NCBI GenBank assembly: GCA_016840165.1
Contig: JAEOSU010000070.1
Span: 14,051 to 78,050, forward strand
DNA length: 64,000 nt
Source of the DNA: Promethearchaeota archaeon
GTDB taxonomy: Archaea > Asgardarchaeota > Lokiarchaeia > Sigyniarchaeales > SOKP01
Direction of reading: 5' to 3'
The notes under the pieces are model-generated. The model worked only from the letters and a program-made list of their open reading frames with translations. It did not search any database and was not told where the DNA came from. Both the position numbers and the translations under genes were made by a program. Shown here piece after piece: positions 2,984-58,482 of the stretch; position 1 is the stretch's first letter, and each line of letters begins with the position of its first letter.

Positions 2984-4240
2984 TTATCCTTCAATTATAA
3001 TCAATCGTTCGATCTTATCAACGATTTTTAGCGCTCCAAAATAAGAGTCTGCAAATGAACTCCCAGTATATAACACCGTACATACTGGTTCGTTTTTCCA
3101 AATTTCATGATCAGGGTTAAATTTATCATAGACGTGATCAATTTTATTGATTTCTTTTATTATTGCACCTTTAATAGCTTGTGGTGCAAAATAAACTAAT
3201 TTCGTGGCAAATTGAGGTTTCTTAATGCTATCAAGTGAAGTTTCTATCTCTTGCCATTTATCCTTAGAAAAGGATTGAATATGTAAATCTAATAAATTAA
3301 TTCTAAGTGCCCTTTCTGAAACTCTAAGGGATCCGGGAATTCTAGGATTGATTTCCATTAAGAAGGGATAATGATTTTTTAATACATAATCAAAACCGTT
3401 TATTCCCCGTAAATTAAGAGTTTTAGTAAGAAAGATTGAAATTTCTGCGATAACATCATTATCTTCTTGTAATAGATTGGCAGGAACTATATTACCGCAG
3501 TAAATGAACTCTTTCGGGGCATGAAGAAACCTCTCCCCTATTATTTGACGGTTGATTGAAATTACCTTAGCATTAACACCATCAGAAATCACAGTGCAAC
3601 TTATAGGTATGCCATCAATATATTCTTGAACGATCCATTGTTTAGGGTTGAATTCTTTCATTCCCAGTTTTTGTTTAAGAAAGATATATTTCTGATATGA
3701 TTCAATTTTATAAACGTTAACTCCTCCCGAGCTCTGCTTCTTTTTTAAGATTACAGGGAAATGTAATTCAGGATTCTGAAAGTTAAATTGATTAGCCTCT
3801 ATACTAATAGGATGCTTGAATTTATTTTTGTCCAATAATTTATATAACAGTCGAATATCTCTGGCCTTTTTGAGAGTTTCGATATCATTATTTAAACTTT
3901 GTATTGTGTATTTTTGATCTTTCAGCTTCTGATAGAAGTGTATTCTCTCATCAAAAGCATCATCTAAACCACTTCCAATAATAAGGTATTCTATATGAGG
4001 ATATTTATCTAATAAGGTTAATGAAAGTTTTAATAAATAACGATGATATATTCCCTTCATTATTTCATAATTTGCACCAAATTCTTGACTAACAATTAGA
4101 GAATCTTCTACATAGGGATATAAATCCTCATCTCCAAAAAAATCAACCGTGAAAACGCGATATCCCGCTAAATGTAGAGAAGTAGCTAATGGCCTAGTGT
4201 TAAAACCAACAACTAGAACAGAATTCTTATTTTTTCTCAT
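2984..4240 (-). CDS. ATP-grasp domain protein of the type found in archaeal C1-cofactor gene neighbourhoods
   Basis: VLVVGFNTRPLA..DFFGDED N-terminus; ILKK..SSGG, VQEYIDG, GFDYV and MEINPR ATP-grasp motifs. Confidence 0.8.
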   Translation of the reverse strand: MRKNKNSVLVVGFNTRPLATSLHLAGYRVFTVDFFGDEDLYPYVEDSLIVSQEFGANYEIMKGIYHRYLLKLSLTLLDKYPHIEYLIIGSGLDDAFDERIHFYQKLKDQKYTIQSLNNDIETLKKARDIRLLYKLLDKNKFKHPISIEANQFNFQNPELHFPVILKKKQSSGGVNVYKIESYQKYIFLKQKLGMKEFNPKQWIVQEYIDGIPISCTVISDGVNAKVISINRQIIGERFLHAPKEFIYCGNIVPANLLQEDNDVIAEISIFLTKTLNLRGINGFDYVLKNHYPFLMEINPRIPGSLRVSERALRINLLDLHIQSFSKDKWQEIETSLDSIKKPQFATKLVYFAPQAIKGAIIKEINKIDHVYDKFNPDHEIWKNEPVCTVLYTGSSFADSYFGALKIVDKIERLIIIEG

Positions 4241-4271
4241 TTGGATAATAAGAGTAATCCAATAAGAGATA

Positions 4272-6479
4272 TTAGAGTATCTTTTTTAATTCCAAAATAA
4301 GATTCTTAGGATTTATTCTATCAAATTGAAATATTTCTGCCTTGCCATATTCTTTGAAGTTCTCCTTTATCTCGTTAGCCGCAAATGTATTCACGCCCAA
4401 TGATTTCGTCGCATAGCTCTTTTTTGGCTCTAAAACCACGAGATGAACCCCTTTTCTTGAGAGCGTTTTAGTTAATTCTTTCAGTTCATTGATTATCACA
4501 TCATAATCACTCTGAACTTGTGCGATCAGGTCGGGGTATTTTACTGAGATATTTGCTCCACAATCTGAGCAGACAAAAATAACAGGAATCACATTTCTAT
4601 TTTTTAATTTTTCAGCATTGATTAATTTGAGAGATTTTGTAAGTGCTGCAGCCATTGGAGTATAAGATTTGCCTTCAATGTTCTTTACTTTATTTGCGGC
4701 AGTTTTAAAATAAACTGTTGGTTTCTGGAGAACCACCGCTTCTTTCCCCCGAAAAATAATCAAACTAATCTTATCTTTTTTTCTATAACCTTCTTTCTGG
4801 AGGGATAAAATTACATCGGTCATTTGTTTTATTACATAATACATTGAAGCAGAGCTATCTAAAACAAAAAATAAGACTAAGGGGGCTCGATATTCATATA
4901 TTTTGTCCATTAAATCATATTTGTCAAACCTTATAGGAAATTCAATATCGGTTTGATTGTAAATTGTATTTTTTAAATAATTTCTGATAGTTGCATCTAA
5001 TGCTATACTTTTTGGTCTATTTCGTGGAGTTCGATAAGCAACATAATGCCCTTTTTGAGTTGACGCTATCTTTATTCTTCTACCAATACCTCTCCCACCA
5101 TAATTAGAAACCTTCCGATCTTTTCTAATATTATCTAAAATGGAAGTCATCTTTTTTTCCATCTTGTATATTAATGGCATAGCGTCAATTTCATAATCTA
5201 AGAAATTAAATAACTCTTCATTATTAGGAATTTCTTTTACTTTCCAACCTCCGGCTGGCGATGGGCTTCTCTTTTTATTATCAGGGAATTTTGGTGGTGG
5301 TAATTTCTGTTCTTTGGTTTCGGGTACATCCACCTTTTTTGGATCTACAGACTGCCTTTTAAATTCTTTCTGTGGTGCATCATCATATTTTAATGGACCC
5401 TCTGTATCTTTATTTGGTTTGTAAGTATTGGTATCCTCATAGGCTTTCTGGATCTTTCCATATACCTCAACGATTTTAGCTTTTACCTCTTCAGGGGTCA
5501 TTTCATAATGTAGACTTTGAATTCGATGTTCAAACACTAGGTCCATGGCAGCATTCAGATCATCTTCATTAACTCGTTTTCTTCCATTAAATGCAGCATG
5601 AGCACGGGCACAACGAATAAAAGTGATATCTGCCCTTTGAGAAAAAATATCTAATTCATTGACTAGTCTAGAGACAAATTCATACACTGTTGATGGTATT
5701 TGGACTTCTTTTAGAATTTTGCGGGCGTTAACGATTTTTTTACGTAATTCCTCTTGCTCTTTTTCATAGTTTTTATAGAATTCTTTAGGATTATCATCAA
5801 ATTCAATTACTCTTTTTGAAATTTCCGCTCGAAGCTTTGCATCGCGGGGCGCTTTAATTTTTACCTCCAAACCTAGTCGATCTGCGATCTGTGGTCTTAA
5901 TTCCCCCTCTTCAGGATTCATTGAACCGACCAAAACGAATCGAGAGGGGTGAGATACTGAAATTCCTTCTCGCTCGATAATGTTAACTCCAGAGGCAGCA
6001 GAATCCAACAATACATCAACAATATGATCTTGTAATAAATTTATTTCATCAACATATAAGATACCTCTGTGGGCTTTAGCGAGCAATCCAGGATGAAGAC
6101 TGCGGATACCTTCAGTAAGAACTTTATCTATGGATAATGAGCCAGTAACCATATCTTCAGTAGCCCCCAACGGCATATCAGCAATACGCATATTGCGTTT
6201 TTCTATTTCAAGTTTACCAGATGCTAATCTTGTTTTACAGTCTTCACATAAAAGCTCAGGATCCGCTTTTGGATCACAAGAAAAGGCACATCCTTGAACA
6301 ACTTCGATTTCAGGCATAACATCTACTAAAGATCTAACAGCTGTTGATTTTCCCGTACCTTGTTGGCCAGTAAGTAGTATACCTCCAATCTGAGGATCCG
6401 TAACGTTTAGAATCAACCCCAATTTCATTTTATCTTGTCCGAGTATGGCAGTAAAGGGGTAATTAATATTTTTAAACAT
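4272..6479 (-). CDS. Mg/Co-chelatase ChlI/ChlD-like AAA+ ATPase fused to a vWA domain
   Basis: YPFTAILGQ, Walker A GQQGTGKS, PGLLAKAHRGILYVDEINLL, NPEEGELRPQ; Pro-rich linker; MIDAS LDSSASM. Confidence 0.9.
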   Translation of the reverse strand: MFKNINYPFTAILGQDKMKLGLILNVTDPQIGGILLTGQQGTGKSTAVRSLVDVMPEIEVVQGCAFSCDPKADPELLCEDCKTRLASGKLEIEKRNMRIADMPLGATEDMVTGSLSIDKVLTEGIRSLHPGLLAKAHRGILYVDEINLLQDHIVDVLLDSAASGVNIIEREGISVSHPSRFVLVGSMNPEEGELRPQIADRLGLEVKIKAPRDAKLRAEISKRVIEFDDNPKEFYKNYEKEQEELRKKIVNARKILKEVQIPSTVYEFVSRLVNELDIFSQRADITFIRCARAHAAFNGRKRVNEDDLNAAMDLVFEHRIQSLHYEMTPEEVKAKIVEVYGKIQKAYEDTNTYKPNKDTEGPLKYDDAPQKEFKRQSVDPKKVDVPETKEQKLPPPKFPDNKKRSPSPAGGWKVKEIPNNEELFNFLDYEIDAMPLIYKMEKKMTSILDNIRKDRKVSNYGGRGIGRRIKIASTQKGHYVAYRTPRNRPKSIALDATIRNYLKNTIYNQTDIEFPIRFDKYDLMDKIYEYRAPLVLFFVLDSSASMYYVIKQMTDVILSLQKEGYRKKDKISLIIFRGKEAVVLQKPTVYFKTAANKVKNIEGKSYTPMAAALTKSLKLINAEKLKNRNVIPVIFVCSDCGANISVKYPDLIAQVQSDYDVIINELKELTKTLSRKGVHLVVLEPKKSYATKSLGVNTFAANEIKENFKEYGKAEIFQFDRINPKNLILELKKIL

Positions 6480-6687: not shown

Positions 6688-7638
6688 TTAAAATTTTTTT
6701 GAGATCTCAGCTAATTTAGAGTCTAAATTTGTCACTTCTTCATCCCAGAGTGACATGATCTCATTTACTTGTGGAATTATGGTATATCTTTCTTTATATT
6801 CAAGATAGTCCATAAATTCTTTAACATTTCCGATCTTAATATAAGTTTCAGCCACAAATTTTCGAATCTCATGAATTTGATTATTTAATACCTCTGGAAT
6901 CCGATGAGATTCCCCTTTTCGCACCAAGGTCATTAAATATTCTTCAGTTCCAAGTAGAAGTGACCTAAATTTTTTTAATTTCTCTTCTACGAAAGTTTGA
7001 TAAGTCTCAAATATTTTGTCCTTTGGGAAAAAGTTAGTGACATTTATGATAAATTTTTGAGTTTGGTTAACTAATTGCTCCATATTATCATATCCCTCAA
7101 CAACATAGTCAGTGGTATGATATGAAGCTTCAATCCCCCTAGAAGTATCATCTAAACTAAATATTTTAAAGCCAGGATCATTTTTCAAAGGTTTTTCTGG
7201 ATCTCCTTTTTTATCAGGCATTTCTACTTGGCGCAATAGTCTTTCAGGATTGAATACAAGTGTGAAATAGGAGGGATTCGCTGTTTGATGGAAGGCAAGA
7301 TGTCGAATATCAATATGACTTAACATTACTTTAAATCCCGGATGAGAATGCCATGAACCAACCGTATACAATCCCCTCGAAAAGGCCTCATCATCAATAA
7401 GAGTATATGTAACATTATCCTCTTCTGACCACTCATATTTATCGATGACTGCATCTTTATCAAACTTTTCATGCATAATAGGATATGATTCCTTAATCAA
7501 AATATCATCATCCTTCTTTTCACCGATAAAAACACCATTTACTTCTAACCACTCTTCTTTTGGGATTTTTTTATTGGCAAATCTCACCGCTGCAGCAACC
7601 ACAGTTAGATAAACATTTTTTGGTATTATTATAGTCAT
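6688..7638 (-). CDS. MPN/JAB (JAMM) metalloprotease domain protein with helical C-terminus
   Basis: EVNGVFIG...VGSWHSHPGFKVMLSHID gives a complete E-x(n)-HxH-x7-S-x2-D motif. Confidence 0.85.
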   Translation of the reverse strand: MTIIIPKNVYLTVVAAAVRFANKKIPKEEWLEVNGVFIGEKKDDDILIKESYPIMHEKFDKDAVIDKYEWSEEDNVTYTLIDDEAFSRGLYTVGSWHSHPGFKVMLSHIDIRHLAFHQTANPSYFTLVFNPERLLRQVEMPDKKGDPEKPLKNDPGFKIFSLDDTSRGIEASYHTTDYVVEGYDNMEQLVNQTQKFIINVTNFFPKDKIFETYQTFVEEKLKKFRSLLLGTEEYLMTLVRKGESHRIPEVLNNQIHEIRKFVAETYIKIGNVKEFMDYLEYKERYTIIPQVNEIMSLWDEEVTNLDSKLAEISKKF

Positions 7639-7816
7639 TATTACTATTTCTATTTCTTTATATTTTTGATGAAGTTATACTAATCCGTATATTTATGTTT
7701 TCTTTCTTCTACAAAATATAAAATTATTTAAATTCAAAATTTACCATTATATTATTACCTAGAGTCATTTTAAAACAGATTCCAAGTAAATATTTTTGAT
7801 TGAATTGTGATTAAAT

Positions 7817-8437
7817 GTGAGTGAAAAAGGATTTGAACCATTAAGTAGCCAACTAGGTATTGCGGGAACATCCTATCGAATTCAATTAGGACTTATCAAT
7901 GGTCGATGGGCTTCACGATTATTAAAGGGAAATAATGTAATCGATTCTTATATTTATAAGGATGAAGATGTTCAAGGAGGGTATCCAAATCAAAATATAA
8001 TAGTTGGATGGGTACTAAGAACTGTTGCCATTCCTAATATCAATCCTCATCAAGTTATGAAGACTACTCAAGCTTTAGTAAAGCAAGCGATTGATAAAAA
8101 AGAACAGAAGAAAGTAATGGCCCCAATTTCGGAAACTAAGGAGGTTGAATTAGAGAAAGTCCCAGAAAGCCAGCTAAAAAGAGTTCAGACCAAAGGTTGG
8201 GTAAAAGAGGAGGGAATGAAGTCAATACAAGAACTTGAGGAGGATAAACGTGAAGCATTCAGAGAAAGAATGAAATATAAACATGAAGAGGAAGCAGTAA
8301 GAAAGGGTGAGACTATACATATTACCCGAGACTTACCTTCAATTCCTAAAGCGGGAGATCAAACTTCCAAAAGTTGCCCGAGTTGTGGTAAGGATTTAGA
8401 TTTTAAATATTGTCCCTATTGCGGACAAAAATTATAA
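7817..8437 (+). CDS. Hypothetical protein with C-terminal zinc ribbon
   Basis: 206-aa ORF ending CPSCGK..KYCPYCGQKL. Confidence 0.7.
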   Translation: MSEKGFEPLSSQLGIAGTSYRIQLGLINGRWASRLLKGNNVIDSYIYKDEDVQGGYPNQNIIVGWVLRTVAIPNINPHQVMKTTQALVKQAIDKKEQKKVMAPISETKEVELEKVPESQLKRVQTKGWVKEEGMKSIQELEEDKREAFRERMKYKHEEEAVRKGETIHITRDLPSIPKAGDQTSKSCPSCGKDLDFKYCPYCGQKL

Positions 8438-8642
8438 ATTTTTTGTTATTATCATATTTTTTGCTTAATCATCGCAGAAATTATTTAGATTCATATAGGA
8501 TTATCGTAAATTAGATATAAGCTTGCTATGTAGCATTTAAAGGAATTAAATAGTCTTTGACGACCATAATAAGGTAAAATGTATATAACAAATGGGTTAA
8601 ATTAATATATTTTAAAAATTAACTATATCTAAACTTGTCAAA

Positions 8643-10142
8643 ATGAGTGATTTAATCATGGGGAAGTATGTTGATGAAAGCATAGTGATTGTTAAACCAT
8701 TGGCTTATTATAAAATGTTAGTTCATATACTTCGATTTGGTTCGAAAACGAGGGATCATAGGCAATTTAAGGAAGTAATCGGGATGTTAGTGGGTCATTT
8801 AGAAGGGGAAGATAAAATTAAAGATGTTATAATTGAGGATGTAGTACCAATTTCACATGGTGGGTCGATAGAAGTAAAATTCACAGAAGAACAATTAGGT
8901 GCTTTCGGAGAAATAGATTTACAAATCTTTAAAGAACACGGTTCAAAAAATTGGTTCACTGTGGGTTGGTATCATTCACATCCAGGATTAAATATATTTT
9001 TCTCCTCAACTGACGTTTATAATCAACTTTTTTGGCAGGATAGGAATCCTAGTGGCGTTGGATTGGTATTTGATCATACCTATTTAGAACGTGAAGGAGA
9101 TTTAGGATTTCGCGCCTTTCGATTAGATGATCCTTCAAAGGGCCTTAATTCGGATTATCATGAAGTTAAATCGAAAGTCGAACTCCCCTCCGATGATTCA
9201 TTTTATTCAAATGTAATAGATTTAATTAATAACATTCAGTTGAACCTACCACCATTATATGAATTAAATGAAACTACAGATTTATTTAGCGATGTATTTA
9301 TTCCGGATAAAAAGGACTTAGAGATCCAAAAACCAGAATTACATCTCCAAGAATTGATATCTTCTTTGAAAACAGGCCTAAACTCCTTTTTAGATCTTTC
9401 TATGATTCCATTAATTACTTCTCTAAATGAATGGAGTCAAAATATTACTAGTAAAACTTATTATAATAATACCCAAATTCGAAACGACCTAATTGAATTG
9501 AAGGATAATCTCTCAATAAGTTTAAAGGAAGTACAAAAATCATTCAATTTCAATTTGCAGGATAATTTAAAGAAACTAGATGACTATATTTCTGATACAT
9601 TTGATGTATTTGAAGAGGAACAAGATAATATTAAGCAAATTTATGAGGAGTTTAAAAGTAAAGTAAATCAAGAGACAGAAACTCTATTTAATGAAAAAAT
9701 AAAGTTTTCAGTGGAACAAATCAATTTTCTATTTGAAAACTGCAGAAAGTTGATAGCAGATATGGATACAGTGAATATTAATTGTATTGAAAGCCTAAAA
9801 AAGAGTAATGAAATAACGGAAAATTTATCTAAAATCGTCATGCCCTCAGAAAAAAGGATCTTCAGCAAATTAGAAGAAGATAAAAACAAAATAATAGATA
9901 ACTTCAAGAAAAAATCTGCTAATCTGGAAAACAATATCACGAATATGAATAAAGAAACAAAAAAGATTTTATCTAATCTTAAAGCAGCTATTTTAGTTCT
10001 TGAAGGTTCAAAAGAACCTATTTTTAGTAAGATTGAGAAATTAGAAAGTGAAAAGAAAAATTTGCATTCAAATATTAAAGAACTAAAAAGTGAAAAACAA
10101 GAATTATTAAGTCAAATTAAAGATTTAAAGAAAGGAGGATAA
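8643..10142 (+). CDS. Rpn11/CSN5-like MPN+ protein with long helical/coiled-coil C-terminus
   Basis: KMLVH..KEVIGMLVG..VGWYHSHPGLNIFFSSTDVYNQ..GFRAFRL; about 280 aa of amphipathic helix follows. Confidence 0.85.
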   Translation: MSDLIMGKYVDESIVIVKPLAYYKMLVHILRFGSKTRDHRQFKEVIGMLVGHLEGEDKIKDVIIEDVVPISHGGSIEVKFTEEQLGAFGEIDLQIFKEHGSKNWFTVGWYHSHPGLNIFFSSTDVYNQLFWQDRNPSGVGLVFDHTYLEREGDLGFRAFRLDDPSKGLNSDYHEVKSKVELPSDDSFYSNVIDLINNIQLNLPPLYELNETTDLFSDVFIPDKKDLEIQKPELHLQELISSLKTGLNSFLDLSMIPLITSLNEWSQNITSKTYYNNTQIRNDLIELKDNLSISLKEVQKSFNFNLQDNLKKLDDYISDTFDVFEEEQDNIKQIYEEFKSKVNQETETLFNEKIKFSVEQINFLFENCRKLIADMDTVNINCIESLKKSNEITENLSKIVMPSEKRIFSKLEEDKNKIIDNFKKKSANLENNITNMNKETKKILSNLKAAILVLEGSKEPIFSKIEKLESEKKNLHSNIKELKSEKQELLSQIKDLKKGG

Positions 10143-10148
10143 AGGTTA

Positions 10149-11552
10149 ATGCCAAAAAACTCGAAGAATTCTACTCAAACTGATAGCAAAGATAAGATAA
10201 TCGAAAGTAAATCTGAAGGTAGTGTAAACATTCAATATGAAGCATTTAGGAAAATGATAACTCATACTCTCCGATTTGCTAATGAATCAAAGGAGGAAGA
10301 TCAACAAGTATTAGGTTTGTGCATTGGTGAGTATTTCAAAGAAAATAAAAATTATATTGTTAAGGATGTTATTCCGATTTGTCATGGTGATGCTGTTGAA
10401 CTTGGATTTTCTAAAGAGATTCATGAGACTATCGAAGAAATTAAATCCCAATATTCTGAATCTATTAATTCTATAATTGGTTGGTATCACTCCCATCTGG
10501 GATACGGACTATATTTTTCAAATTCGGATAAAGTGAATAACCTCAATTTCCAAAACTCAGAAAACATTTATGGATTTGGAATTGTTATAGAACAAACATT
10601 ACTTAATGAGGATCAGAGTTTTGGAGTAGCAGTATTTCGGCTTAAAGACTTTAATAAAGGTTCTGAAAATGACTATATTAAGGTAGAATTTAATATAGAA
10701 CCCCCAAATTCCATGGAATTTTTTAAGTGGGTAAAACAATTAGTTGAATCAACTCAAAGCAAAAGTTCTCAGATCATTTATGAATTTAATGAAGTACAAA
10801 AACCATCTCCCGAAAATCTTCAAAAAATTCCTACACTCCCACAAGAAGAGACGGAATCTGAAGTAAAAGAAGAACTTTCTTTGCTCTATGGAGTTGATGA
10901 GGGTATGGAAAAATTAAAAGATTCTTTTCTCAAATTATATGAAATACAGTTGACTTCATGGATGAGTGATGTTTCTAATGGGGTTTTAATTGGTTCTGAA
11001 TATATTAGGAGCTCTATTAACAATATCAAAACAACTTTAACTTCAGGACTGGAAGATGCTCAACGGATATTTGATAAAAGTTTTTCTGATATTTCGAATC
11101 TTTTCATGAAGAATATACGAGGAAGCGTCGATATACGGTTAGAAAATCAAATTGAATTGAAAGAGAATATTAAAGCAATTAATGAGGAACAATTAAATAA
11201 CTTATTCGCTCGTTTAGAAAAGGAAATACGCGATGTGACGAATAATTTCGAGGAAAAAATAACAAATATTAAAAAAGAATTGGAAAAGATTGCTCTAAAT
11301 AATAATTCTATTCAACAATCTTTAATTCAAACAAATGATATATTAAGTACCGTTTATGAAGAGACCGATAAATTATCAGATAACATCATCCAACATATAG
11401 AAAATTCAAGTAAATCATTCGAATCAAAGTTATTGAATGAATTAGAAGATTTCTCTAGAAATATAACTCCAAATAAAGAAATTTACACTGAAATAGAAGA
11501 CCTAATCGAGAGATTACAACGAGTGATTTCTGATTTACGCCAAGTAAAATAA
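10149..11552 (+). CDS. MPN domain protein (catalytic Glu position is Gln) with long helical C-terminus
   Basis: KMITH..QQVLGLCIG..IGWYHSHLGYGLYFSNSD; starts 6 nt after the upstream paralog, with a GGAGG SD. Confidence 0.8.
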   Translation: MPKNSKNSTQTDSKDKIIESKSEGSVNIQYEAFRKMITHTLRFANESKEEDQQVLGLCIGEYFKENKNYIVKDVIPICHGDAVELGFSKEIHETIEEIKSQYSESINSIIGWYHSHLGYGLYFSNSDKVNNLNFQNSENIYGFGIVIEQTLLNEDQSFGVAVFRLKDFNKGSENDYIKVEFNIEPPNSMEFFKWVKQLVESTQSKSSQIIYEFNEVQKPSPENLQKIPTLPQEETESEVKEELSLLYGVDEGMEKLKDSFLKLYEIQLTSWMSDVSNGVLIGSEYIRSSINNIKTTLTSGLEDAQRIFDKSFSDISNLFMKNIRGSVDIRLENQIELKENIKAINEEQLNNLFARLEKEIRDVTNNFEEKITNIKKELEKIALNNNSIQQSLIQTNDILSTVYEETDKLSDNIIQHIENSSKSFESKLLNELEDFSRNITPNKEIYTEIEDLIERLQRVISDLRQVK

Positions 11553-11565
11553 CGAAAGCTTATTT

Positions 11566-11880
11566 TTAAAAAAATTCAAGATTAGAAACCATAGAGATAT
11601 GGAGTTTATATTTAGGAATATTGGTTTTGAGTCGTTTCAATTGATTTCTTTTCGCTATATTGCTTAATATTCTTCCGATTTTATCGACTCTAATGTTAAT
11701 CCCAAAATTTTCTTTCAAGACAGAATTAATTTTATAAGAAGAGAGAATCACTACATTGGAGACATTTTTTTCACATAACATCTCAATAGCTTGTTTAACT
11801 AAAGATATTAATTTATCTATATCTTGTTTGCTATTCATACTTATATAATGATTATATTTGAAACTTTTTAAAGCTTTCAA
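11566..11880 (-). CDS. Small basic winged-helix-like protein (likely start at the internal MNSKQ)
   Basis: LSSYKINSVLKENFGINIRVDKIGRILSNIAK is HTH-like; Lys/Arg rich. Confidence 0.5.
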   Translation of the reverse strand: MKALKSFKYNHYISMNSKQDIDKLISLVKQAIEMLCEKNVSNVVILSSYKINSVLKENFGINIRVDKIGRILSNIAKRNQLKRLKTNIPKYKLHISMVSNLEFF

Positions 11881-11975
11881 CGAGTAAAGAGAATGTTGTT
11901 AAGATTTATTTAAGAAAAAAATTTTATATACTAAGTCAATACATTGATTATAATTAGTTTAAATGGATTAAATAA

Positions 11976-14294
11976 ATGAAAAAGTTAAACCTTTTATCAA
12001 AATTTAAAAATTCTTTAAAACCTCTTTTTAGAAAAATCATATTTAAAGAGATCTATGTTGAGGGAAAAGAGCCACCTAAATCATTTGCTTTTGAAAAAGA
12101 ATTTTTAGGCATCTATTGCATATTTTTATTCTATTCTTTCATTTTATTACTTGGAATTAATTTTCCTGATAACTTATTTATTTATTTAATAACATTTGGG
12201 AATCCATTTGCTTTTGGAAATGCAATTGTAGCACTTTTTTTATGCCTTTCTTTATTATTTAGTAACGATAAAATAAGACTCTTCATTTTCGAAGGTCACA
12301 CCGTATTAAAGCAAGTAATTTTATATGTCGGTATCACCACTGTTTTTTATTTTGTATTTTTAAGTCTTTCCAGCCTCAATATTATGAGTTATCTTCTTTG
12401 TTTAGCAACATTCTGGCTTATATTATTAAGTACAAGATTTTTTATGTATTCTCGAAAATTTGCTACCAAAATTGAAGCTCAAGCTATAGAAAAGTATTCA
12501 TCATTACGGCGAGCAGGGGCTTTTATCACCCCTTATTTTATTTTAGGCGTTTTAGTGGCATTAGCATTGATATATCGGAGTTTTTTAGTCTTTATATCGT
12601 TAGATCTATTTGCTTTATCTGATCCAGTCAGTGCGGTAAATATTTATATTATTGAAATGCGTTTAATAATGCCTTTAATCTACTTTAGCCTAATACTCAC
12701 TTTACTCTTCATTATATTTGAATTTGTATTCACAAGAAAGAAAGCAGAAACAAAACGAGCGGGATTATATGATAACTTTACCTTTTCCCTCATTGTGTTA
12801 TTTATCTTTTTCTTTCAGATCCTTCAAGTGACTATATTTTTATTTTTAAGCTCTGAAACCGTATCTGCTCTAAAAACTACAGTTGGTACAACAAGCTCAC
12901 CTATATCGTATATTTTTATATTTGAATTTTTAATTTCTATGTTTTTTCTCTACCGCATTATTAAAAAGTTTGGACGATCAATTGGATGGCAACTATTATT
13001 CTTTAAGAGAGATGGATTGGTTCTTTTGATATTAGGTTGTGTATTTGCCCAAACGCTGAGCCGATTTTCTTTACAAACACAGATTCCAAATCAATCAATA
13101 ACCATTTTGGGGAATTTCTTTATGGCAGATAAATATGTTGTTTCTATAATTATGATCATCTTTCTTGGATTGACCCTACTAATTTACTATCTTAAACCTC
13201 ATGAAACCTCAATGTTTATTCGATTACAAAAGGAAACGGTGGATAAAAAAGAAGAAAGCATGGATATAATCTATAAATTAATTAAAAGTGAGTATATTCG
13301 ACGTGGAGATGCATATCCAATTGAAATTTTGGAAAGAGAATTGATTAAAGCGACTAAGTTACCGAAAAATGAGGTATATTCCTTACTGGATAAACTCTCA
13401 GATGAAAGCATTGATATTGTTTTAACCGAAAAGAAAAATGATTATGGTATAAAACAGAAATTCATTGATTTTACATCAGTAACCGAGAAATTTGACAGCA
13501 AAACTGTTGCAGAAAGAAAAGCGAAGAATTTTTTATCTCAACGATTATATAAAACAATTTCGAGCAAAAAAACTAAAGATTTGAAACTAAGTAGCAACAT
13601 TAAATCGGAAAAAGCATCTGATCAATTTTTGAGCTCCTTAGCAACGGATATATCAAAAAAACATAGAGATGAGCAAAAAATCAAATTAAAACAAAACAAT
13701 ACAGAAATCTCATTTATTAGAAAGGAGGTCCCTGAGTCATTAAAGCATTCAATATTAACTATACTTAAAAAGGAGTATATCTATCGTATTGAAAATAAAG
13801 AGAAATATCCTGATTTTACTTATCCCATATCAGAAATCGCCTCTACAGTCCAATTGGAAACAAGAATTAATCCAGGAGAATTATATCCTATCTTGGAAAC
13901 CCTTAATCAAACTGATATAGAATTAAGATTACTAGATAATCCCAATGAACCAGAAGATAAAATAATTGACTTTTATCCTATAGATGATGATTTAAATTAT
14001 ACTTTGTCAAGTTTTAGACCCAACCAATATTCTAAGATTAAGATAGAATTTATGAATAATTTTATTAAACATTTAAAACGCAAACGTGTTAAAGCAACTC
14101 TCTCTAAGATAAAGAAGAATATATCAAATGAAAATGAGGAACAGAAATACTGGAATAAACTTTATCAAATTTTAATTAATTATTTTCCGAATTTCGAGGA
14201 AGTTCTCCAAAAAGAGAGAGAGGGTGGAGATATATCAAAAGTTCTTAAAATATTCCCTCTCAAAGATATTGATGTATTCAATATTGAATCCTAA
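11976..14294 (+). CDS. Polytopic membrane protein with C-terminal tandem winged-helix-like repeats
   Basis: About 10-11 hydrophobic segments in the first ~410 aa, then two repeats of the form xKxEYIxR..YPI..E.Y..L..L...IDF. Confidence 0.65.
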   Translation: MKKLNLLSKFKNSLKPLFRKIIFKEIYVEGKEPPKSFAFEKEFLGIYCIFLFYSFILLLGINFPDNLFIYLITFGNPFAFGNAIVALFLCLSLLFSNDKIRLFIFEGHTVLKQVILYVGITTVFYFVFLSLSSLNIMSYLLCLATFWLILLSTRFFMYSRKFATKIEAQAIEKYSSLRRAGAFITPYFILGVLVALALIYRSFLVFISLDLFALSDPVSAVNIYIIEMRLIMPLIYFSLILTLLFIIFEFVFTRKKAETKRAGLYDNFTFSLIVLFIFFFQILQVTIFLFLSSETVSALKTTVGTTSSPISYIFIFEFLISMFFLYRIIKKFGRSIGWQLLFFKRDGLVLLILGCVFAQTLSRFSLQTQIPNQSITILGNFFMADKYVVSIIMIIFLGLTLLIYYLKPHETSMFIRLQKETVDKKEESMDIIYKLIKSEYIRRGDAYPIEILERELIKATKLPKNEVYSLLDKLSDESIDIVLTEKKNDYGIKQKFIDFTSVTEKFDSKTVAERKAKNFLSQRLYKTISSKKTKDLKLSSNIKSEKASDQFLSSLATDISKKHRDEQKIKLKQNNTEISFIRKEVPESLKHSILTILKKEYIYRIENKEKYPDFTYPISEIASTVQLETRINPGELYPILETLNQTDIELRLLDNPNEPEDKIIDFYPIDDDLNYTLSSFRPNQYSKIKIEFMNNFIKHLKRKRVKATLSKIKKNISNENEEQKYWNKLYQILINYFPNFEEVLQKEREGGDISKVLKIFPLKDIDVFNIES

Positions 14295-31862: not shown

Positions 31863-32666
31863 TTATTGAAAATATTGAGTATAGCGTTCTTTAGGTTCTT
31901 GGGGTAATTGTTGCTGTCTCTGATATTGCTGAGCTTTTTCAGCCAACTCTAACATCTTAGCTTTAATCTCCTTCCCTTCTTCTATGAGCTTAGAAGTTTC
32001 TATATTTAAACTATAAATTTGATTCAATACTTCAATAATAGAAGCAGCACCTTCCGGGGTAGGGATCTCTAATACCGGAGTAAATAGGGCATAAGCTCTT
32101 AGCTTATTAGTTAGAGCTTCATTAAGGATTGTAGCTTCAGGGCCAACAATAATTCCCTTGTCTACTTTTTCCAAACCGTATTGCTCCAATCTGCCCATCA
32201 CTTCCTCTTCAGCAGCATAATAGACAGGATAATCATCAATAATCCCTCTTTGGGGGATTCCCTGAAAAATTAAGACCTCTTTAGCTTTCACATCTTCTGA
32301 TAATAACCAATTAGTTATTGTTTTGCTTAGATCATTATATGCCGTGGAAACTTGAAATGGAACTTCTACAATTCCCACTATTAGATTATGCTGAGGAGAG
32401 TAATATAATCTGAATGGATGCTTTAAGACTCCCTGATAAAAAACAGAAATTGGAGGAAGATATTCAGAGGTCACGAACCCAATTTCTTTAATATCTGGGA
32501 TCTGTTCAATTAAAGCATTAGCTACGATAGGTCCGATTAATCCCACACCAGCAAATCCTAGTATCATAGTGGCTCCCTCCTTTATTTCAGTTTGTAAATC
32601 TTCGATGATCAGAGTGCTTCTTTTACCCTTTTCGCAAATATATTCCTTTTTAACCATAATCAACAC
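31863..32666 (-). CDS. PAC2-family proteasome assembly chaperone
   Basis: GFAGVGLIGPI, PFRLY, PTPEGAA, LIEEGKEI. Confidence 0.85.
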   Translation of the reverse strand: MLIMVKKEYICEKGKRSTLIIEDLQTEIKEGATMILGFAGVGLIGPIVANALIEQIPDIKEIGFVTSEYLPPISVFYQGVLKHPFRLYYSPQHNLIVGIVEVPFQVSTAYNDLSKTITNWLLSEDVKAKEVLIFQGIPQRGIIDDYPVYYAAEEEVMGRLEQYGLEKVDKGIIVGPEATILNEALTNKLRAYALFTPVLEIPTPEGAASIIEVLNQIYSLNIETSKLIEEGKEIKAKMLELAEKAQQYQRQQQLPQEPKERYTQYFQ

Positions 32667-36360: not shown

Positions 36361-38094
36361 TTATTGGTAGCGATTAATGATTTCCTTGATGACTAAAGCA
36401 ATCAAATCTTTAGATTTTTTAATAGGATAAAAACTCATTTTCGTGAGTAAATCTTTAAATTTGGCTTTAGGAATTTCAGAAGAACCAATGAAAAATCCTA
36501 CAACATGGTGTCCTTGTTCTAATAATTTTAAAAATGTTTTTTTTGATGAATTCCAGTTATATATTCCAAAATCTGTAATAATAAAGACTAAAACCTTCTG
36601 ATTTGCTTTCTGACACTGTTTAGATATCTCATTAAGTGGCAACTGTGTTCCCCCTCCTTGATATCGCAATAAAATTTTTTCAGCATCTTTATAATTTGTG
36701 GTCCAATCACAAATATCGGCTTTATTAGAGAAATTAATTACACTAAATTTTATAGCTTTTTTAGCAACATAATGAAGAGCAGCAAAAGCAGCGATTAGTG
36801 CTGTATGATACGTTCCTTTCGGATGTTTAGATTTATAATTCCAATTCATAGAACCAGAAGAATCAAGTACAATTAGCAAATCCGGGATATCTTTTTCTCT
36901 CAAGCGGACTCCGCTTTCTCTTTTAATCCATTTCCTTGTGGTTATATTAGGAATAATGATAGGACTATTTAATAAGCTTTGAGTTATATCTAATGAGTCT
37001 ATAGGATCCCCTAATCGCCAGGTTTCAGGGTAAATAGGCAACTCATCACCTTTTTGTTCTTCATAGATCTCAATTTCAATGAGATTTTTTGCTTGGCCTC
37101 GGTACCAAGTAGCTAAAGGATCTAAATTTAGAAGGATTCCTGCTTGATTTGCGGGGGCTCCGAATTCTGAATATGGAATCTCTTTTGCAAATTCCTCGGC
37201 TTTTTGTATCAGTTCATCTTCATTTTCGAATTTTAATTTATCAATATTCCTACTTTCAAGTGGATTGTCCATTATTTCAATAACATCTTCAGGTATATCT
37301 ATTTCTAATCGTTCTTTTCCTGGGTGTTTTTTCCTAACAAAATGGTTCTTTTTCTTGAAGGTTTTACCCACTAAATTAAAATTTTCTACAATTAATGGTT
37401 TTAACAGTAAAGCAAGTTTAGATACCTTCTTTTCCCATAAAGATTCATCCTCGAATTTGGTGTTAATAATTTTTTCTGCTTTTTCCGCAAGTGAATTTAA
37501 GTTCTTAACAACTTGAGATTTAGCATCTATTATTCTAATACTTAGTAGCCTTTCATAAACTTGAAATAAAAAGAGAGAAAAAGTGCTTATATGGTTATCA
37601 TTAGCGTCTAAAATATGTTTATAGGTTGTTTTTAATTCCCATGATATGAGTTGAGGATATCTTATATGTAATTTTTTATCAATAATCAAATCGGCAAATA
37701 TATTAACTACTATTGGCGCAAAAACTTCATTAACGTGCTTCATTGCAGCATTTAATAATTTTGCATTAATTAAACCATCATAGGGAATAATCTGATAATG
37801 CGATACCTCATGAAGAGTTATGGCATGAAAATAATTAATGTAATCATGATTATCTGTAAATAAAGGTGAGTTTGCTAGATTCATAGTAATTTGCCATTTA
37901 TGGGCGGGATCAATATAAAATCCTTCTTTATTGGAATATTCAAAGACATAATTAGGTTCACTTAAAGGGGGATAATAAAGATCTCTCATCGTTTTATTCC
38001 ATGCTTCTTGAGCAAATTGGAGGAGTCTTTTTTCTTTTATAGTTAATTTTAGTTCCTTTTTTTTTATAGAATCTGACTTCTTTATTTCTGACAT
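36361..38094 (-). CDS. HExxH metallopeptidase-like domain plus vWA domain protein
   Basis: ITLHEVSHY..NIFAD; MIDAS LDSSGSM, GGGT, ITDF. Confidence 0.85.
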   Translation of the reverse strand: MSEIKKSDSIKKKELKLTIKEKRLLQFAQEAWNKTMRDLYYPPLSEPNYVFEYSNKEGFYIDPAHKWQITMNLANSPLFTDNHDYINYFHAITLHEVSHYQIIPYDGLINAKLLNAAMKHVNEVFAPIVVNIFADLIIDKKLHIRYPQLISWELKTTYKHILDANDNHISTFSLFLFQVYERLLSIRIIDAKSQVVKNLNSLAEKAEKIINTKFEDESLWEKKVSKLALLLKPLIVENFNLVGKTFKKKNHFVRKKHPGKERLEIDIPEDVIEIMDNPLESRNIDKLKFENEDELIQKAEEFAKEIPYSEFGAPANQAGILLNLDPLATWYRGQAKNLIEIEIYEEQKGDELPIYPETWRLGDPIDSLDITQSLLNSPIIIPNITTRKWIKRESGVRLREKDIPDLLIVLDSSGSMNWNYKSKHPKGTYHTALIAAFAALHYVAKKAIKFSVINFSNKADICDWTTNYKDAEKILLRYQGGGTQLPLNEISKQCQKANQKVLVFIITDFGIYNWNSSKKTFLKLLEQGHHVVGFFIGSSEIPKAKFKDLLTKMSFYPIKKSKDLIALVIKEIINRYQ

Positions 38095-38112
38095 ATTATA
38101 AGTTTAATTAAT

Positions 38113-39837
38113 TCACTCTTTTTGGATGTATTCTAAACTTTCTAAAAGTGAGCGTAATTTCAAGGCATCTGCACCACCAGAAACCTGAATATTTACTATT
38201 GAATCGTCTTTAATTCCAGTTACATTCGTCTCAATTAAAATTTGTTCTGCTCGAATCTGTTTTGTTTGCCTTTTGCTAAATGCTTGTTTTAATGGTTGAT
38301 CTAAGTTAGGAAATTCAGCTGCAATTTCTACCCAAACTTCTTTGTGATAGGAATACTTAAAGGTGAAATCAGAAACCGTTTGTTTATAAAGCTCTTGGTC
38401 GCACCAATTAATCAAGTAAGCGCGGTTTGGAAATTCGAGATCATCAATTAAGTTACTCCTAATTTCGGATAAGCTTTCTATATCTCCACTCTTTACAGAT
38501 TTATCTATTTTTTCAGCTAATTTAGCATATTTCTTTATTTTTAGCGACTTACTGAAAGGCAGTAAGTCATAATTTACAATTAAATCATTTTTTGCATATT
38601 CATTTAATATCTCTAAATCTTTATCTTCTGAAGCTCCATCGCGAAAGCGAGTGGCAATTTCATAACAAGGAATGCGATTTACAAATCGTTTATTAATCAT
38701 ATCAATGATATGATGAGTAAAATCATACTTATTACCCCAGAATGGTGCTTTTTCCAATTCTCGGGATGAATAATTAACACGATGAGAAATAACATATGGT
38801 GCAATAGAATTTACGATATTTATGTCAACTTCATTGAGATTCAGCAGCCATGCTAATGCTTTTGAATATCTCAGAAGGTCTTTAGCTACGCGTACACTTA
38901 AAATCGAATCAATTTTATTACACACACTTTGATTTGTGTTATAGTGACAACCAGAACATAGACCAGAACTTGGTTTAAGATTTTCGGAGTTACCTTTATC
39001 TACTCGGGCACACAATGTGAATTCTCGAATTATCGCATGAATGTAATTATTTACTTCAGATTTAAATCTCATTCGGTTTACGTAATACCAAATTTCCATT
39101 AATGCATCAATACTTAGAATTTCAGGGACTTCAATTAATTCATCATATCCGGAATATTTTTCATCTTTACCCCTAAGGATGAGAGATAAATCATTACTAC
39201 TAGGCATTGAGATGGGAACTGAGATTCCGAATCGATCAAGAAAGGGTTGAGACAATTCAAAGGTCCCTACATCTTGAGGATTTATAGTAGAGTAAAGCGT
39301 ATATTTTTCGATTGTAGCAACTGCATCATAATATTTTACTTTTCCTTCTGCCAATAAAGATAAGAGGATGTCCTGAGAGTAAGGTGTTAAACGATTTACC
39401 TCATCAATTATCTTCCAAAAACCCGTAACAAATTGCCTCCAGACTACTTCTTCTATACCATCTTTCATTAATTTTCCTAACTTTAAAGTACCAGTTAGCT
39501 TTTCTTCTGTAAGTTGGGGGTGCCCCCGAACTATTGAGTTTTCAATTTCATCTAATCGCATACCAGTAAACATGCGACCTAATAACTTCACTAGAGTTGT
39601 TTTACCTCCTCCATGCCCCCCGACTAAAAGCATAGCTGAATTTGGAACTAGAGCGTTTAACACACATAAGGATAAGATTTCTGGTAATACTTTTTTGTTA
39701 GTTTTATTTTTCTTGTCATCATAATACTTAATTTCCAAGTTTTTCGAATGGACGAATAATTGATTTGCTTGAATAAGATTTAAAGTATTCCATACTTTTT
39801 TCCTTAATAACTCTTCCTCTCCTAGAGTCTTTATCAT
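38113..39837 (-). CDS. MoxR-family AAA+ ATPase
   Basis: GGHGGGKT, IIDEVNR, STINP, FLDRF, SVR. Confidence 0.85.
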   Translation of the reverse strand: MIKTLGEEELLRKKVWNTLNLIQANQLFVHSKNLEIKYYDDKKNKTNKKVLPEILSLCVLNALVPNSAMLLVGGHGGGKTTLVKLLGRMFTGMRLDEIENSIVRGHPQLTEEKLTGTLKLGKLMKDGIEEVVWRQFVTGFWKIIDEVNRLTPYSQDILLSLLAEGKVKYYDAVATIEKYTLYSTINPQDVGTFELSQPFLDRFGISVPISMPSSNDLSLILRGKDEKYSGYDELIEVPEILSIDALMEIWYYVNRMRFKSEVNNYIHAIIREFTLCARVDKGNSENLKPSSGLCSGCHYNTNQSVCNKIDSILSVRVAKDLLRYSKALAWLLNLNEVDINIVNSIAPYVISHRVNYSSRELEKAPFWGNKYDFTHHIIDMINKRFVNRIPCYEIATRFRDGASEDKDLEILNEYAKNDLIVNYDLLPFSKSLKIKKYAKLAEKIDKSVKSGDIESLSEIRSNLIDDLEFPNRAYLINWCDQELYKQTVSDFTFKYSYHKEVWVEIAAEFPNLDQPLKQAFSKRQTKQIRAEQILIETNVTGIKDDSIVNIQVSGGADALKLRSLLESLEYIQKE

Positions 39838-57500: not shown

Positions 57501-58482
57501 CACTTGAGATTGCCAAAGTCATCGGATCATTAAATTCTGGCAAGCCTCCCCCAAAGCTCATGGAAATTATGTCTGCTCCCGCAGTTAATACAGCCCATTC
57601 AATCGCATCGATGATATCAGTATCATTTAAACCTTCGAAATTGCCAGCCCTTGCATTAATTAATGAAACTCCAGGTGCGATACCCCTATATTTACCACCA
57701 GAAGAGATACCGCTTCCTCCAATGATACCAGCCGCATGGGTACCGTGACCATAGTCATCATTTGAATCTAATAAATCTCCGGTAACAAAACTTTGATTTG
57801 CGATTATATTTAAATCAGGGTGATCGTATATACCAGTATCTACCACAGCAACTTTGACTCCAGTGCCATCAAAAGCTAGATCTTCAGCACCTATTGCAGA
57901 AATCCACCAATTGGAAAAATAATTGTAATCAAGGCTACTTGTAGTCGGAGACTCTTCTGTGTATTCAGGATTCTCATAAAACTGAGACTTATATATTTTA
58001 GTTAATCCCTCAACATCTCTTAGAGCTTCTTGCTTTGAAATTAACTCTGCAGAATTACAAATTAAGGAAACACCAGAGATAATATCATAATTGTGTATGA
58101 GTTCATAGTCCTCTAAGAGATTATCAATTTTAGTAATTCGATCTGATTTAGAAACCTCCTCTTTGAATAGCATAATCACTTTAACTTTTTCTGCTTCCGA
58201 TTTGTATTTCAATGAATAGTTTAAAAGAAATTCGGTAAGAGGTGAGTCAAAAATATTGTCTTGACTGATATTGTCAAGGCTAGATTCTGCGATTGAATTA
58301 TCTTCTCTTAATGAAGAAATGAGAGTCAAATCGTCGTTATTCAGATTTATAGCTGAATCAAAGCTCTTAGTATCACGTAAACCATAACTATATACTATAA
58401 ATGGAAGATTAACTAAGTTGAATAGAACAAAAGTTAAGACTAATACTTTTTTGAATATTTTGAAATGTTTCATGGTTATCAA
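54514..58482 (-). CDS. Membrane-anchored S8 subtilase with Site-1-protease-like accessory domains and cytoplasmic zinc ribbon
   Basis: Signal/anchor segment; triad VVDTG, HGTHAAG, GTSMSCP; GATase/GIFT-like domain; C-terminal TM; CPYC..CPNC. Confidence 0.85.
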   Translation of the reverse strand: MITMKHFKIFKKVLVLTFVLFNLVNLPFIVYSYGLRDTKSFDSAINLNNDDLTLISSLREDNSIAESSLDNISQDNIFDSPLTEFLLNYSLKYKSEAEKVKVIMLFKEEVSKSDRITKIDNLLEDYELIHNYDIISGVSLICNSAELISKQEALRDVEGLTKIYKSQFYENPEYTEESPTTSSLDYNYFSNWWISAIGAEDLAFDGTGVKVAVVDTGIYDHPDLNIIANQSFVTGDLLDSNDDYGHGTHAAGIIGGSGISSGGKYRGIAPGVSLINARAGNFEGLNDTDIIDAIEWAVLTAGADIISMSFGGGLPEFNDPMTLAISSVANNYGVILVSSAGNEGPDYFTGGSPASGNDVISVGATDINNNLASFTSWGPTLTYLGYPDVVAPGVNIIAAEAPNSALSDRKRYIGDYFDFSGDGDYIPLSGTSMSCPVVAGALAILKEAYPSITPETARIALLDGAQPLSNYEDDDTLKFGAGLINVSASLEFMESLSSDINDTARFFPDVIPPQPFDLLHFPGDKQSFNITVISGRANSYNINIPDKVDGLKLKLDNTALTFSEENVKFVTLDIEIEQDARPGVRNFELNLTDGIVEYDSINITIDIKFPEYKVLMESFHGLNDWIPETSFYQMDFYDFMKDMTNLNISFDYSAEYWTPYYDANYNNSLLTEERLAQYDLILLQNPILPYTTDEMNNIKDYFDNGGNILFLGTRYQDLCLDNINELFSVLGSDITINQENEYSENWFGVGASINSQSVIELNSPLIFDGVEKFEWYYGNTFNVGSGSESIATLNDKTVAATYNETTSGGKLVAFGDLHWISELYSSSSYQLDHSNLARNLMDYFFSNDDVSIQVVLNSERTSNSQFNISVYVKDLSLGTPIASSVLNTNLSITISNSGFSESIETISLENGIAYNSTYSLSSTDYKPYDIIVNFTFGSKTYQKTSKLLYFNPTSIPIINSLAVSKSPVTRESGDFTQLRVDLDSSSYSVNAYMSIYSYSFYNTKQTINKTFPLSYSATLYRYNYDPSISDPAGIAIYYVFPKDGISNYTNPYSPRYAFEVRNNDPSFIESSSYITIAGQDTYAFDDTYEGESTLIIPVSQGDNLDFTVTSSDVDYEDVDGSSMRVSVNLFIASATDDGFLNIVYPQLFPLKELSYEPLTDTHQGTFIVPFTIAYGSIIGTKEITSATNYNTATGEGYLAILIITLIDSEGGSQEFWIALSIRASIPFELLLIILIIGLIVATGSIILIVYLLKSRRSQAPQEPSDYYSQDYHTIPIENASYDSTPADSQGYRSGFYCPYCGYDIGTPKSFCPNCGRSLYFET

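Follow-up and report, generated by a model that had tools for sequence, protein, structure and literature searches.

Three genes for proteins with MPN/JAB domains lie inside 4.9 kb (6688-11552) of a 64,000-nucleotide stretch of DNA from a Promethearchaeota archaeon (Sigyniarchaeales; SOKP01; assembly GCA_016840165.1, contig JAEOSU010000070.1, positions 14,051-78,050, forward strand). The whole stretch is referred to here as the window, and all coordinates are positions within it. The region studied, 6688-14294, contains six open reading frames (ORFs), designated MPNA, ZnR, MPNB, MPNC, small104 and Memb772. In the reading that we regard as reasonably probable, they form a lineage-specific cluster that joins three older two-gene units, and MPNB and MPNC act as a heterodimeric isopeptidase. 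The first unit would consist of MPNA, a putative enzyme with an intact JAMM site (MPN+), and the divergently oriented ZnR. The second would be the tandem MPNB-MPNC pair, each protein having a predicted MPN head that a flexible linker joins to a helix of some 250 residues. The third would be small104 together with Memb772, for which a SERINC fold and two winged helices are predicted. The units are fused only in f1, one family of one Asgard order, and are found apart elsewhere.

The features of the region are as follows.

6688-7638, minus strand: MPNA, a 316-amino-acid (aa) MPN+ protein whose JAMM site is intact and whose C-terminal tail has 135 aa
7817-8437, plus strand: ZnR, 206 aa, with a C-terminal C4 zinc ribbon
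8643-10142, plus strand: MPNB, a 499-aa MPN+ protein with an MPN domain, a flexible linker, a helical stalk and a Gly-Gly end
8682-9239, plus strand: MPN domain of MPNB (residues 14-199), from the secondary structure of an AlphaFold 2 (AF2) model and structure matches
9381-10133, plus strand: continuous helix of MPNB (residues 247-497), a presumed coiled-coil stalk, from DSSP on the AF2 model
10149-11552, plus strand: MPNC, a 467-aa full-length paralogue of MPNB with Gln53 at the position of the catalytic Glu
11566-11838, minus strand: small104, about 90 aa from a conserved Met (Met15); the longest ORF extends to 11880
11976-14294, plus strand: Memb772, a 772-aa membrane protein with about ten predicted transmembrane (TM) helices, two predicted cytosolic winged-helix domains and a predicted helical tail
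12081-13196, plus strand: SERINC-like TM domain of Memb772 (residues 36-407), from VIA-align of the AF2 model
13245-13472, plus strand: winged-helix domain 1 (WH1) of Memb772 (residues 424-499), from the AF2 model
13734-13973, plus strand: winged-helix domain 2 (WH2) of Memb772 (residues 587-666), from the AF2 model

The stop codon of MPNB is separated from the start of MPNC by 6 bp, an operon-like layout. ZnR diverges from MPNA across a gap of 178 bp and is co-directional with MPNB (205 bp gap). All six cluster proteins gave sub-threshold matches only in NCBIfam.

Catalytic sites and paralogy of MPNB and MPNC

An earlier note on this DNA, made from the sequence alone, had recorded three MPN genes within 5 kb with Rpn11/CSN5-style motifs and long helical C-termini, and these observations hold. 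All three proteins match Pfam JAB or Prok-JAB models above the cut-offs, MPNB and MPNC scoring 52.5 and 39.4 bits, respectively, against JAB PF01398 (cut-off 22.5). The motifs GSWHSHPG..S..D, GWYHSHPG..S..D and GWYHSHLG..S..D are present, as are FKIFSL, FRAFRL and VAVFRL. What that first reading overlooked is the Gln that replaces the catalytic Glu in MPNC.

The JAMM pentad of MPNB (E44, H111, H113, S121 and D124) is present and is invariant across 38 aligned sequences; every full-length sequence aligned has it. The HxHx7SxxD motif is kept by 120/120 MPNB homologues among the matches listed, and the pentad EHHSD is intact in 40/45 MPNB-type ORFs. This conservation argues for a retained enzymatic role. 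MPNC presents a different picture. In the MPNC-type ORFs of related loci, the pentad is intact in 5/37 and at least one catalytic residue has been lost in 32/37. The variants comprise QHHSD (11), EHRSD (6), replacement of the first His by L, I or V (11), EHHTD (3) and SSRNN (1), and the type of variant differs by sublineage. In the JAMM site described in the excerpted text of PMC300881, zinc is coordinated by His and Asp, and the Glu contributes a hydrogen bond. Judging from their sequences, the majority of MPNC proteins should therefore be catalytically dead. Because of Gln53 in the window and the few intact orthologues, MPNC is not classed as an active JAMM protein.

By profile comparison, MPNB and MPNC are full-length tandem paralogues: hhalign aligned them with a probability of 100 (E 3.7e-76) over 423 columns, tails included. 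Maximum-likelihood analysis by a quick search, with 45 rows (20 first genes of the pair, 21 second genes and 4 MPNA), placed all 20 first genes, those of other families included, on one side of a branch with a Shimodaira-Hasegawa-like approximate likelihood ratio test (SH-aLRT) support of 99, and the f1 second genes formed a clade with a support of 97. Since the tree splits the first genes from the rest, it fits a single old tandem duplication, after which the second copy decayed.

The AF2 model of MPNB, built from 38 sequences, has a mean predicted local distance difference test score (pLDDT) of 77.3. It consists of the MPN domain (63-92 per 10-residue block, mostly 76-92), a low-confidence linker at residues 200-245 and one continuous helix of about 250 residues at 247-497 (about 65-93), and MPNC aligns with MPNB through this tail. 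The stalk also drew profile matches to apolipoproteins and to designed coiled coils, which are due to its composition.

The C-terminus of MPNB is exactly Gly-Gly (10134-10139) and is sited at the end of the presumed coiled coil. Gly-Gly also occurs within the last six residues of 58/120 MPNB homologues among the matches listed, often as ..EKGGE. Ubiquitin-like modifiers, and the sites that JAMM enzymes cleave, are marked by a C-terminal Gly-Gly.

A complex of MPNB with MPNC, the one pair predicted, was modelled with custom-built alignments as input. The interaction prediction score from aligned errors (ipSAE) was 0.52 (runs 0.52, 0.42 and 0.53) and that of the best control 0.00, which is a weak pass: the mark is reached by 116/157 solved complexes and 2/215 mismatched pairs, and the range up to 0.60 holds 18 of the 157 solved complexes plus both passing mismatches. 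Contact agreement among the runs was at least 22%, and partner pLDDT at least 66. Related MPN pairs, namely Rpn8-Rpn11, CSN5-CSN6 and BRCC36-KIAA0157, have been solved, so the pass may mirror mere likeness to these heterodimers.

Comparison with known MPN systems

In profile searches of the Protein Data Bank (PDB), all three MPN proteins were nearest to the Rpn11-like protein of Caldiarchaeum, CsRpn11 (6fjv; E 4.1e-15, 2.3e-10 and 2.5e-15, the middle value being that of MPNA), followed by Rpn11, CSN5, BRCC36 and AMSH. A Foldseek search with the MPNB model ranked BRCC36, Rpn11 and CSN5 equally, with E of about 1e-12. The three MPN proteins are thus of the eukaryote-like Rpn11/CSN5/BRCC36 type and not mobile defence JABs, and the grouping with unrelated mobile JABs that the earlier note had named as a counter-indication was found neither by profile nor by structure. 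CsRpn11 is short, its solved chains having 155-228 residues, and consists of a single domain; its gene lies with those for ubiquitin, E1, E2 and E3. In contrast, the MPN proteins of the cluster are long-tailed and encoded away from ubiquitin genes, and MPNB and MPNC are paired.

The eukaryotic proteasome lid, the COP9 signalosome (CSN), eIF3 and BRISC are characterized by pairs of an active MPN enzyme and a pseudo-enzyme. With MPNB intact and MPNC decayed, the two look like an active/pseudo-enzyme pair of the kind formed by Rpn11-Rpn8, CSN5-CSN6 and BRCC36-Abraxas/KIAA0157; full-length paralogy, the decay of most MPNC copies and the weak pass in complex prediction point the same way. The likeness is that of two MPN paralogues, one of which has kept the JAMM site and the other lost it, and C-terminal helices are borne by both the eukaryotic pairs and MPNB/MPNC. 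The differences are also considerable. In the model, the MPNB tail forms a single helix some 250 residues long, whereas the eukaryotic pairs have a short helical bundle. The decay of MPNC is partial, varied by sublineage and absent in some, unlike that of eukaryotic MPN- subunits, and here it is an archaeon that has the two genes in tandem. The eukaryotic pairs also work with PCI, lid, CSN or BRISC partners and none was found for MPNB/MPNC: no such family was detected in nine region proteins (E <= 0.01) or in the other 38 window ORFs (E <= 1e-5). For BRCC36, activity requires its MPN- partner, as stated in the excerpted text of PMC4579573.

If this reading is correct, an archaeal tandem duplicate would show a eukaryote-like division of labour between MPN proteins in the course of arising. 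The varied losses in MPNC among sublineages would offer a natural series on the evolution and role of pseudo-deubiquitinase partners. The predicted long coiled-coil stalk is an architecture absent from the solved MPN proteins that were matched.

Distribution and gene order

The distribution of the genes was assessed from 301 sampled genomes of the phylum; f1, f2, f3 and so on denote families, and counts are sample counts. Memb772 is present in 68/301 genomes, including 60/68 of f1 and 7/7 of f2, and in 0/225 genomes of other families. MPNB-type genes (E <= 1e-45) are present in 70/301, including 66/68 of f1 and 1/7 of f2, and were not found in the other 223. Matches of MPNB type in f5 and f6 (two) span the MPN domain only. 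Full-length MPNB/MPNC-type genes and Memb772 are therefore confined to one order among the 301 genomes, which does not support an Asgard-wide range; the expectation of the earlier note that the genes would be co-localised in related genomes was borne out within f1.

Within the genus of the window, gene order is conserved throughout the block that runs from the ATP-grasp gene to CopA, which is uninformative because of general collinearity. In the 20 same-genus loci, MPNB, MPNC and ZnR are adjacent in 20/20, and MPNA, small104 and Memb772 accompany them in 19/20, 19/20 and 18/20, respectively; MPNB, MPNC, small104 and Memb772 occur together in 18/20. The two exceptions for Memb772 are a contig that ends before the gene and a locus (L028, genome G008) with neither Memb772 nor MPNA. 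More is to be learned from five other f1 genera (14 loci), in which MPNB, MPNC, small104 and Memb772 stand together in 14/14, ZnR in 13/14 and MPNA in 10/14. At the three loci of genus g14, MPNA, a chelatase-like gene, a major facilitator superfamily (MFS) gene and CopA are no longer beside this core. Sixty sampled genomes have both MPNB and Memb772, and in 54 of them the two genes are on a single contig, 1.8-3.6 kb apart.

The flanks of the window cluster are formed by genes for a chelatase-like AAA+/von Willebrand factor A (VWA) protein and an ATP-grasp protein, downstream of MPNA on the same strand, and on the opposite side by an MFS transporter and a CopA-type ATPase. The adjacency of the chelatase-like and ATP-grasp genes to MPNA is kept in several, not all, genera.

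Outside f1, the units are found separately. In f2, small104 lies 1-4 kb from Memb772 in 6/6 loci, with no MPN gene or ZnR in the stretch examined, and six f2 genomes have small104 and Memb772 and no MPNB/MPNC-type gene at E <= 1e-45. Small104 is present in 15/16 non-f1 genomes of the order. Ten non-f1 genomes have a full-length MPNA orthologue, and in 6 of these ZnR lies less than 1 kb from it; the MPNB/MPNC pair stands alone at three loci (L035, L036 and L037). The three units are on separate contigs or 150 kb apart in genome G030, and in G038 the MPNA/ZnR and small104/Memb772 units are separated by 42 kb. Even within f1, five genomes (82-98% complete) carry the MPNB/MPNC pair without a Memb772 match.

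At one f2 locus (L033, 5446-9670), four MPN genes stand in a row, 2.4 kb from a Memb772 orthologue: two short MPNs without His-x-His (203 and 246 aa), then two intact genes of the MPN-coiled-coil type (471 and 452 aa). Outside f1, a TPR-like helical-repeat protein of about 200-275 aa, judged by eye, accompanies the SERINC-like gene or small104 (L058: 7014-7811; L033: 10834-11661 and 14414-15001; L034: 579-1184; L070: 7299-7958). A P-loop kinase-like gene, likewise identified by eye, follows directly downstream at two of these loci.

MPNA and ZnR

MPNA matches Prok-JAB PF14464 with 26.5 bits (cut-off 25). Its JAMM pentad (E32, H97, H99, S107 and D110) is present and is invariant in 16/16 aligned orthologues. 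Among MPNA-type ORFs, the pentad EHHSD is intact in 26/30, and three of the four exceptions are split ORFs. CSN5 is also close to MPNA in the PDB profile search.

The N-terminal domain of ZnR, about 100 aa long, is strongly conserved; a charged linker connects it to the C4 ribbon at the C-terminus. Mean column identity in the alignment of ZnR orthologues is 75%. The zinc-ribbon protein seen in the earlier note is real by this measure: the four Cys of CxxC-x8-CxxC (C187, C190, C199 and C202) are invariant in 10/10 aligned orthologues. Pfam zinc-ribbon models score 17-22 bits, all under their cut-offs of 25-29. The sole match of ZnR in Atlas is an Asgard-labelled zinc-ribbon cluster, and its profile found nothing below E 0.04 among PDB sequences. 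From its place upstream of MPNB on the same strand, ZnR is likely to be an adaptor.

small104 and Memb772

Small104, the protein that the earlier note labelled winged-helix-like, is a genuine conserved gene product, with a mean column identity of 63% over 17 aligned orthologues. Only Asgard-labelled nameless clusters match it in Atlas, its profile found nothing below E 0.04 among PDB sequences, and hhalign detected no similarity between small104 and Memb772. Pfam has no above-cut-off family for ZnR, small104 or Memb772.

Memb772 has 59 matches among 1.84 billion representative proteins. Its AF2 model (24 sequences) has a mean pLDDT of 72.8, with about 80-90 in the TM region. In order, the model shows TM helices at residues 41-406, an H-H-H-strand-strand module at 424-499, a second such module at 587-666 and a helical tail. 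The TM domain is predicted to have a SERINC fold, with about ten TM helices in two bundles. When VIA-align was run against 48,161 chains, it aligned the TM domain with human SERINC3 7rug_A at Z 17.3 (root-mean-square deviation (rmsd) 5.6, 294/315 residues); the next row had Z 9.9, leaving SERINC3 as the only strong structural match. After re-alignment of the top 1000 Foldseek matches, SERINC3 7ru6_A scored Z 16.8 and Drosophila SERINC 6sp2_A scored Z 15.8. In the excerpted text of PMC10359404, SERINC3 is described as a lipid scramblase with two helical bundles linked by a tilted crossmember helix; the long helices of Memb772 (36-40 residues) fit the tilted crossmember helices described there.

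Searches by sequence gave no such signal. Identity in the structural alignment with SERINC3 is 9-10%. The Serinc family PF03348 has zero matches across the whole genome at E <= 10, no Pfam family matches Memb772 at E <= 0.01, and the profile of the Memb772 family (24 members), run against PDB sequences up to E 10, retrieved nothing meaningful and not one SERINC chain. A Foldseek search of the PDB with the Memb772 model yielded nothing at E <= 0.001, SERINC appearing at E 0.05. Because sequence support is absent, we call the domain SERINC-like and do not name Memb772 a member of SERINC.

Relative to SERINC (SERINC3 and Drosophila TMS1d), the two cytosolic winged-helix domains are an addition in Memb772. 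The earlier note had seen tandem winged-helix-like repeats in a membrane protein, and the model agrees with it, giving two H-H-H-strand-strand modules that match winged-helix domains at Z of about 8-9. WH1 matches ESCRT-II Vps22 1u5t_A (Z 8.7, rmsd 2.6, 77 aligned residues) and also Cdt1 (Z 8.1-8.7), cullin WHB and the winged helices of ORC and MCM. WH2, with pLDDT 83-90, matches the ORC winged helix 8zp5_B (Z 8.6, rmsd 2.9, 85 aligned residues), with further matches to PefI and to Wadjet JetABC chain 8as8_C. Winged-helix scores of Z 7-9 may reflect no more than a shared arrangement of elements, and many DNA-binding winged helices score similarly. ESCRT-II proteins (Vps22, Vps25 and Vps36) share with Memb772 the presence of two winged-helix domains in one chain. 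In Memb772, unlike ESCRT-II, Cdt1 and cullin WHB, the domains are about 90 residues apart and are attached to a membrane domain. A PCI-like scaffold, the partner suggested in the earlier note by analogy with eukaryotic assemblies, was considered and set aside: there is no PCI family match, and both winged helices directly follow the SERINC-like domain.

A distant sister family of Memb772 (A7) has a TM domain and one winged-helix-like stretch. In the 301 sampled genomes, it gave only cross-hits to Memb772. A pattern scan of 185,579 species genomes located A7 at 4 loci, in other Asgard-labelled bins and with no MPN gene nearby.

Proposed function and alternative explanations

In the proposed mechanism, MPNB would be the catalytic subunit and MPNC a pseudo-enzyme with a structural or regulatory role, by analogy with the eukaryotic pairs; contact between the two would be made by the MPN heads and by a long coiled coil of two strands. 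The pair may act as a zinc isopeptidase on conjugates of ubiquitin or ubiquitin-like proteins made by E1 and E2 enzymes that are encoded elsewhere in the genome. As the earlier note had stated, no ubiquitin, E1 or E2 gene is visible in the window; no such family was found among 47 scanned window ORFs. Contig C58 of the same genome (98029-102890) has a classical archaeal ubiquitin operon with three ubiquitin-like matches, E1 (ThiF), E2 (UQ_con) and an MPN gene whose frame spans 279 aa, all within 5 kb. More genes for E1, E2 and ubiquitin-like proteins are found on contigs C53 and C4. A substrate system thus exists in the genome.

Several observations weigh against this reading of the cluster. 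The ubiquitin genes are unlinked to it and the ubiquitin operon has an MPN gene of its own, which makes the substrate a guess. MPNB and MPNC are not an active and an inactive copy everywhere, since the MPNC pentad is still complete in genus g12 (5 loci) and both copies of the pair are intact in families f2 and f3 (L033, L034 and L035). The heterodimer prediction is a weak pass for a single pair, and the SERINC likeness is that of a predicted model to which sequence comparison lends no support. Lastly, the adjacency of MPNB and Memb772 persists over six f1 genera as the outer flanks vary, and could mean a functional link. The link between the third unit and the MPN genes is drawn because of this adjacency within one family and nothing else.

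That link is central to the proposal of the earlier note, that the genes may encode one multi-subunit, possibly membrane-tethered complex. In its full form, all six proteins would assemble, Memb772 providing the membrane anchor and the winged helices and ZnR a scaffold for three MPN proteins. This arrangement would agree with the ZnR-MPNB-MPNC-small104-Memb772 core kept in 13/14 loci of the five other f1 genera, with its persistence in g14 despite the loss of the surrounding genes, with the short distance between MPNB and Memb772 in 54/60 genomes, and with the MPN row near a Memb772 orthologue at L033 in another family; winged helices, moreover, bind proteins in ESCRT-II, cullins and PCI subunits. 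However, each unit is found without the others, as in the six f2 genomes that lack the pair and the five f1 genomes that lack Memb772. The units lie apart in G030 and G038, the pair of G008 has neither Memb772 nor MPNA as a neighbour, and no PCI family was found among the region proteins. Because the three units occur apart elsewhere, we consider a single membrane-tethered complex quite unlikely. A deubiquitinase role for the pair can be questioned as well. MPNB-MPNC might instead be a coiled-coil scaffold or tether with partner-binding heads, or act on another substrate, such as SAMP/Urm1-type proteins or peptide tails. MPN heads that bind partners are familiar from eIF3f/h and Prp8. The lack of a linked ubiquitin, E1 or E2 gene, together with the separate MPN gene of the C58 operon, would suit such a role, as would a 250-residue helix that far exceeds the C-terminal helices of the matched MPN pairs and the free loss of catalytic residues by one copy. 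The Gly-Gly near the end of 58/120 listed MPNB homologues could mean self-processing or conjugation of MPNB itself. Yet every aligned full-length MPNB has all five catalytic residues, HxHx7SxxD is kept throughout the 120 listed homologues, and the nearest solved relatives are all ubiquitin or NEDD8 isopeptidases. We consider this explanation unlikely.

That the MPN genes belong to a JAB system like CBASS Cap3 or Bil, mobile or directed against phages, is by contrast highly improbable. PADLOC reported weak JAB matches (up to 27.1 bits), and the tails weakly match the ZorA tail, but the PADLOC matches span the generic JAB domain only and come without a partner family, and there is no adjacent E1/E2-like, CD-NTase or effector gene. 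The cluster occupies a stable chromosomal site among housekeeping genes across genera, its nearest relatives are Rpn11-type MPNs, and in base composition it does not differ from the remaining window sequence (regional G+C 0.28-0.31, inside the range seen elsewhere). A foreign origin of the region was considered and rejected on the basis of this composition.

An extension of the isopeptidase reading that we regard as very doubtful is that Memb772 is a true SERINC relative, of a family that predates eukaryotes, and that in f1 MPNB-MPNC, on a stalk of 35-nm scale and recruited by the winged helices, small104 and ZnR, forms with it a ubiquitin-regulated system for membrane or lipid remodelling. 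Independently of this extension, a SERINC-like fold with winged helices would add a candidate to the membrane proteins common to Asgard archaea and eukaryotes, and Memb772 would offer a simple, assayable prokaryotic model of SERINC function.

In the literature, no account was found of Asgard MPN-coiled-coil pairs or archaeal SERINC-like proteins, the supplementary tables of the Asgard gene-family papers, where such families may appear as numbered clusters, being outside the search. The combination of an intact and a decayed long-stalk MPN with a SERINC-like protein seems to be undescribed, in keeping with the earlier note, which had put the cluster forward as a candidate new system.

Other genes in the window

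The genes beyond MPNA (2984-6479) encode the ATP-grasp protein and a fused ChlI/ChlD-like AAA+ and VWA protein (735 aa; 4272-6479), the latter matching TIGR02442 with 599 bits, under the cut-off of 779. A second AAA+ gene (AAA_5, MoxR-like) adjoins a VWA gene at 36361-39837, and the window thus has two AAA+/VWA systems. At 54514-58482, a subtilase of 1322 aa weakly matches the GIFT domain of IFT52, scoring 28.7 bits against a cut-off of 27.2. The protein encoded at 31863-32666 belongs, with 99.8 bits, to the PAC2 family (proteasome assembly chaperone 2). Roadblock/LC7 proteins are often counted among the eukaryote-like proteins of Asgard archaea, and a 244-aa protein with such a domain (33 bits) is encoded at 2249-2983.

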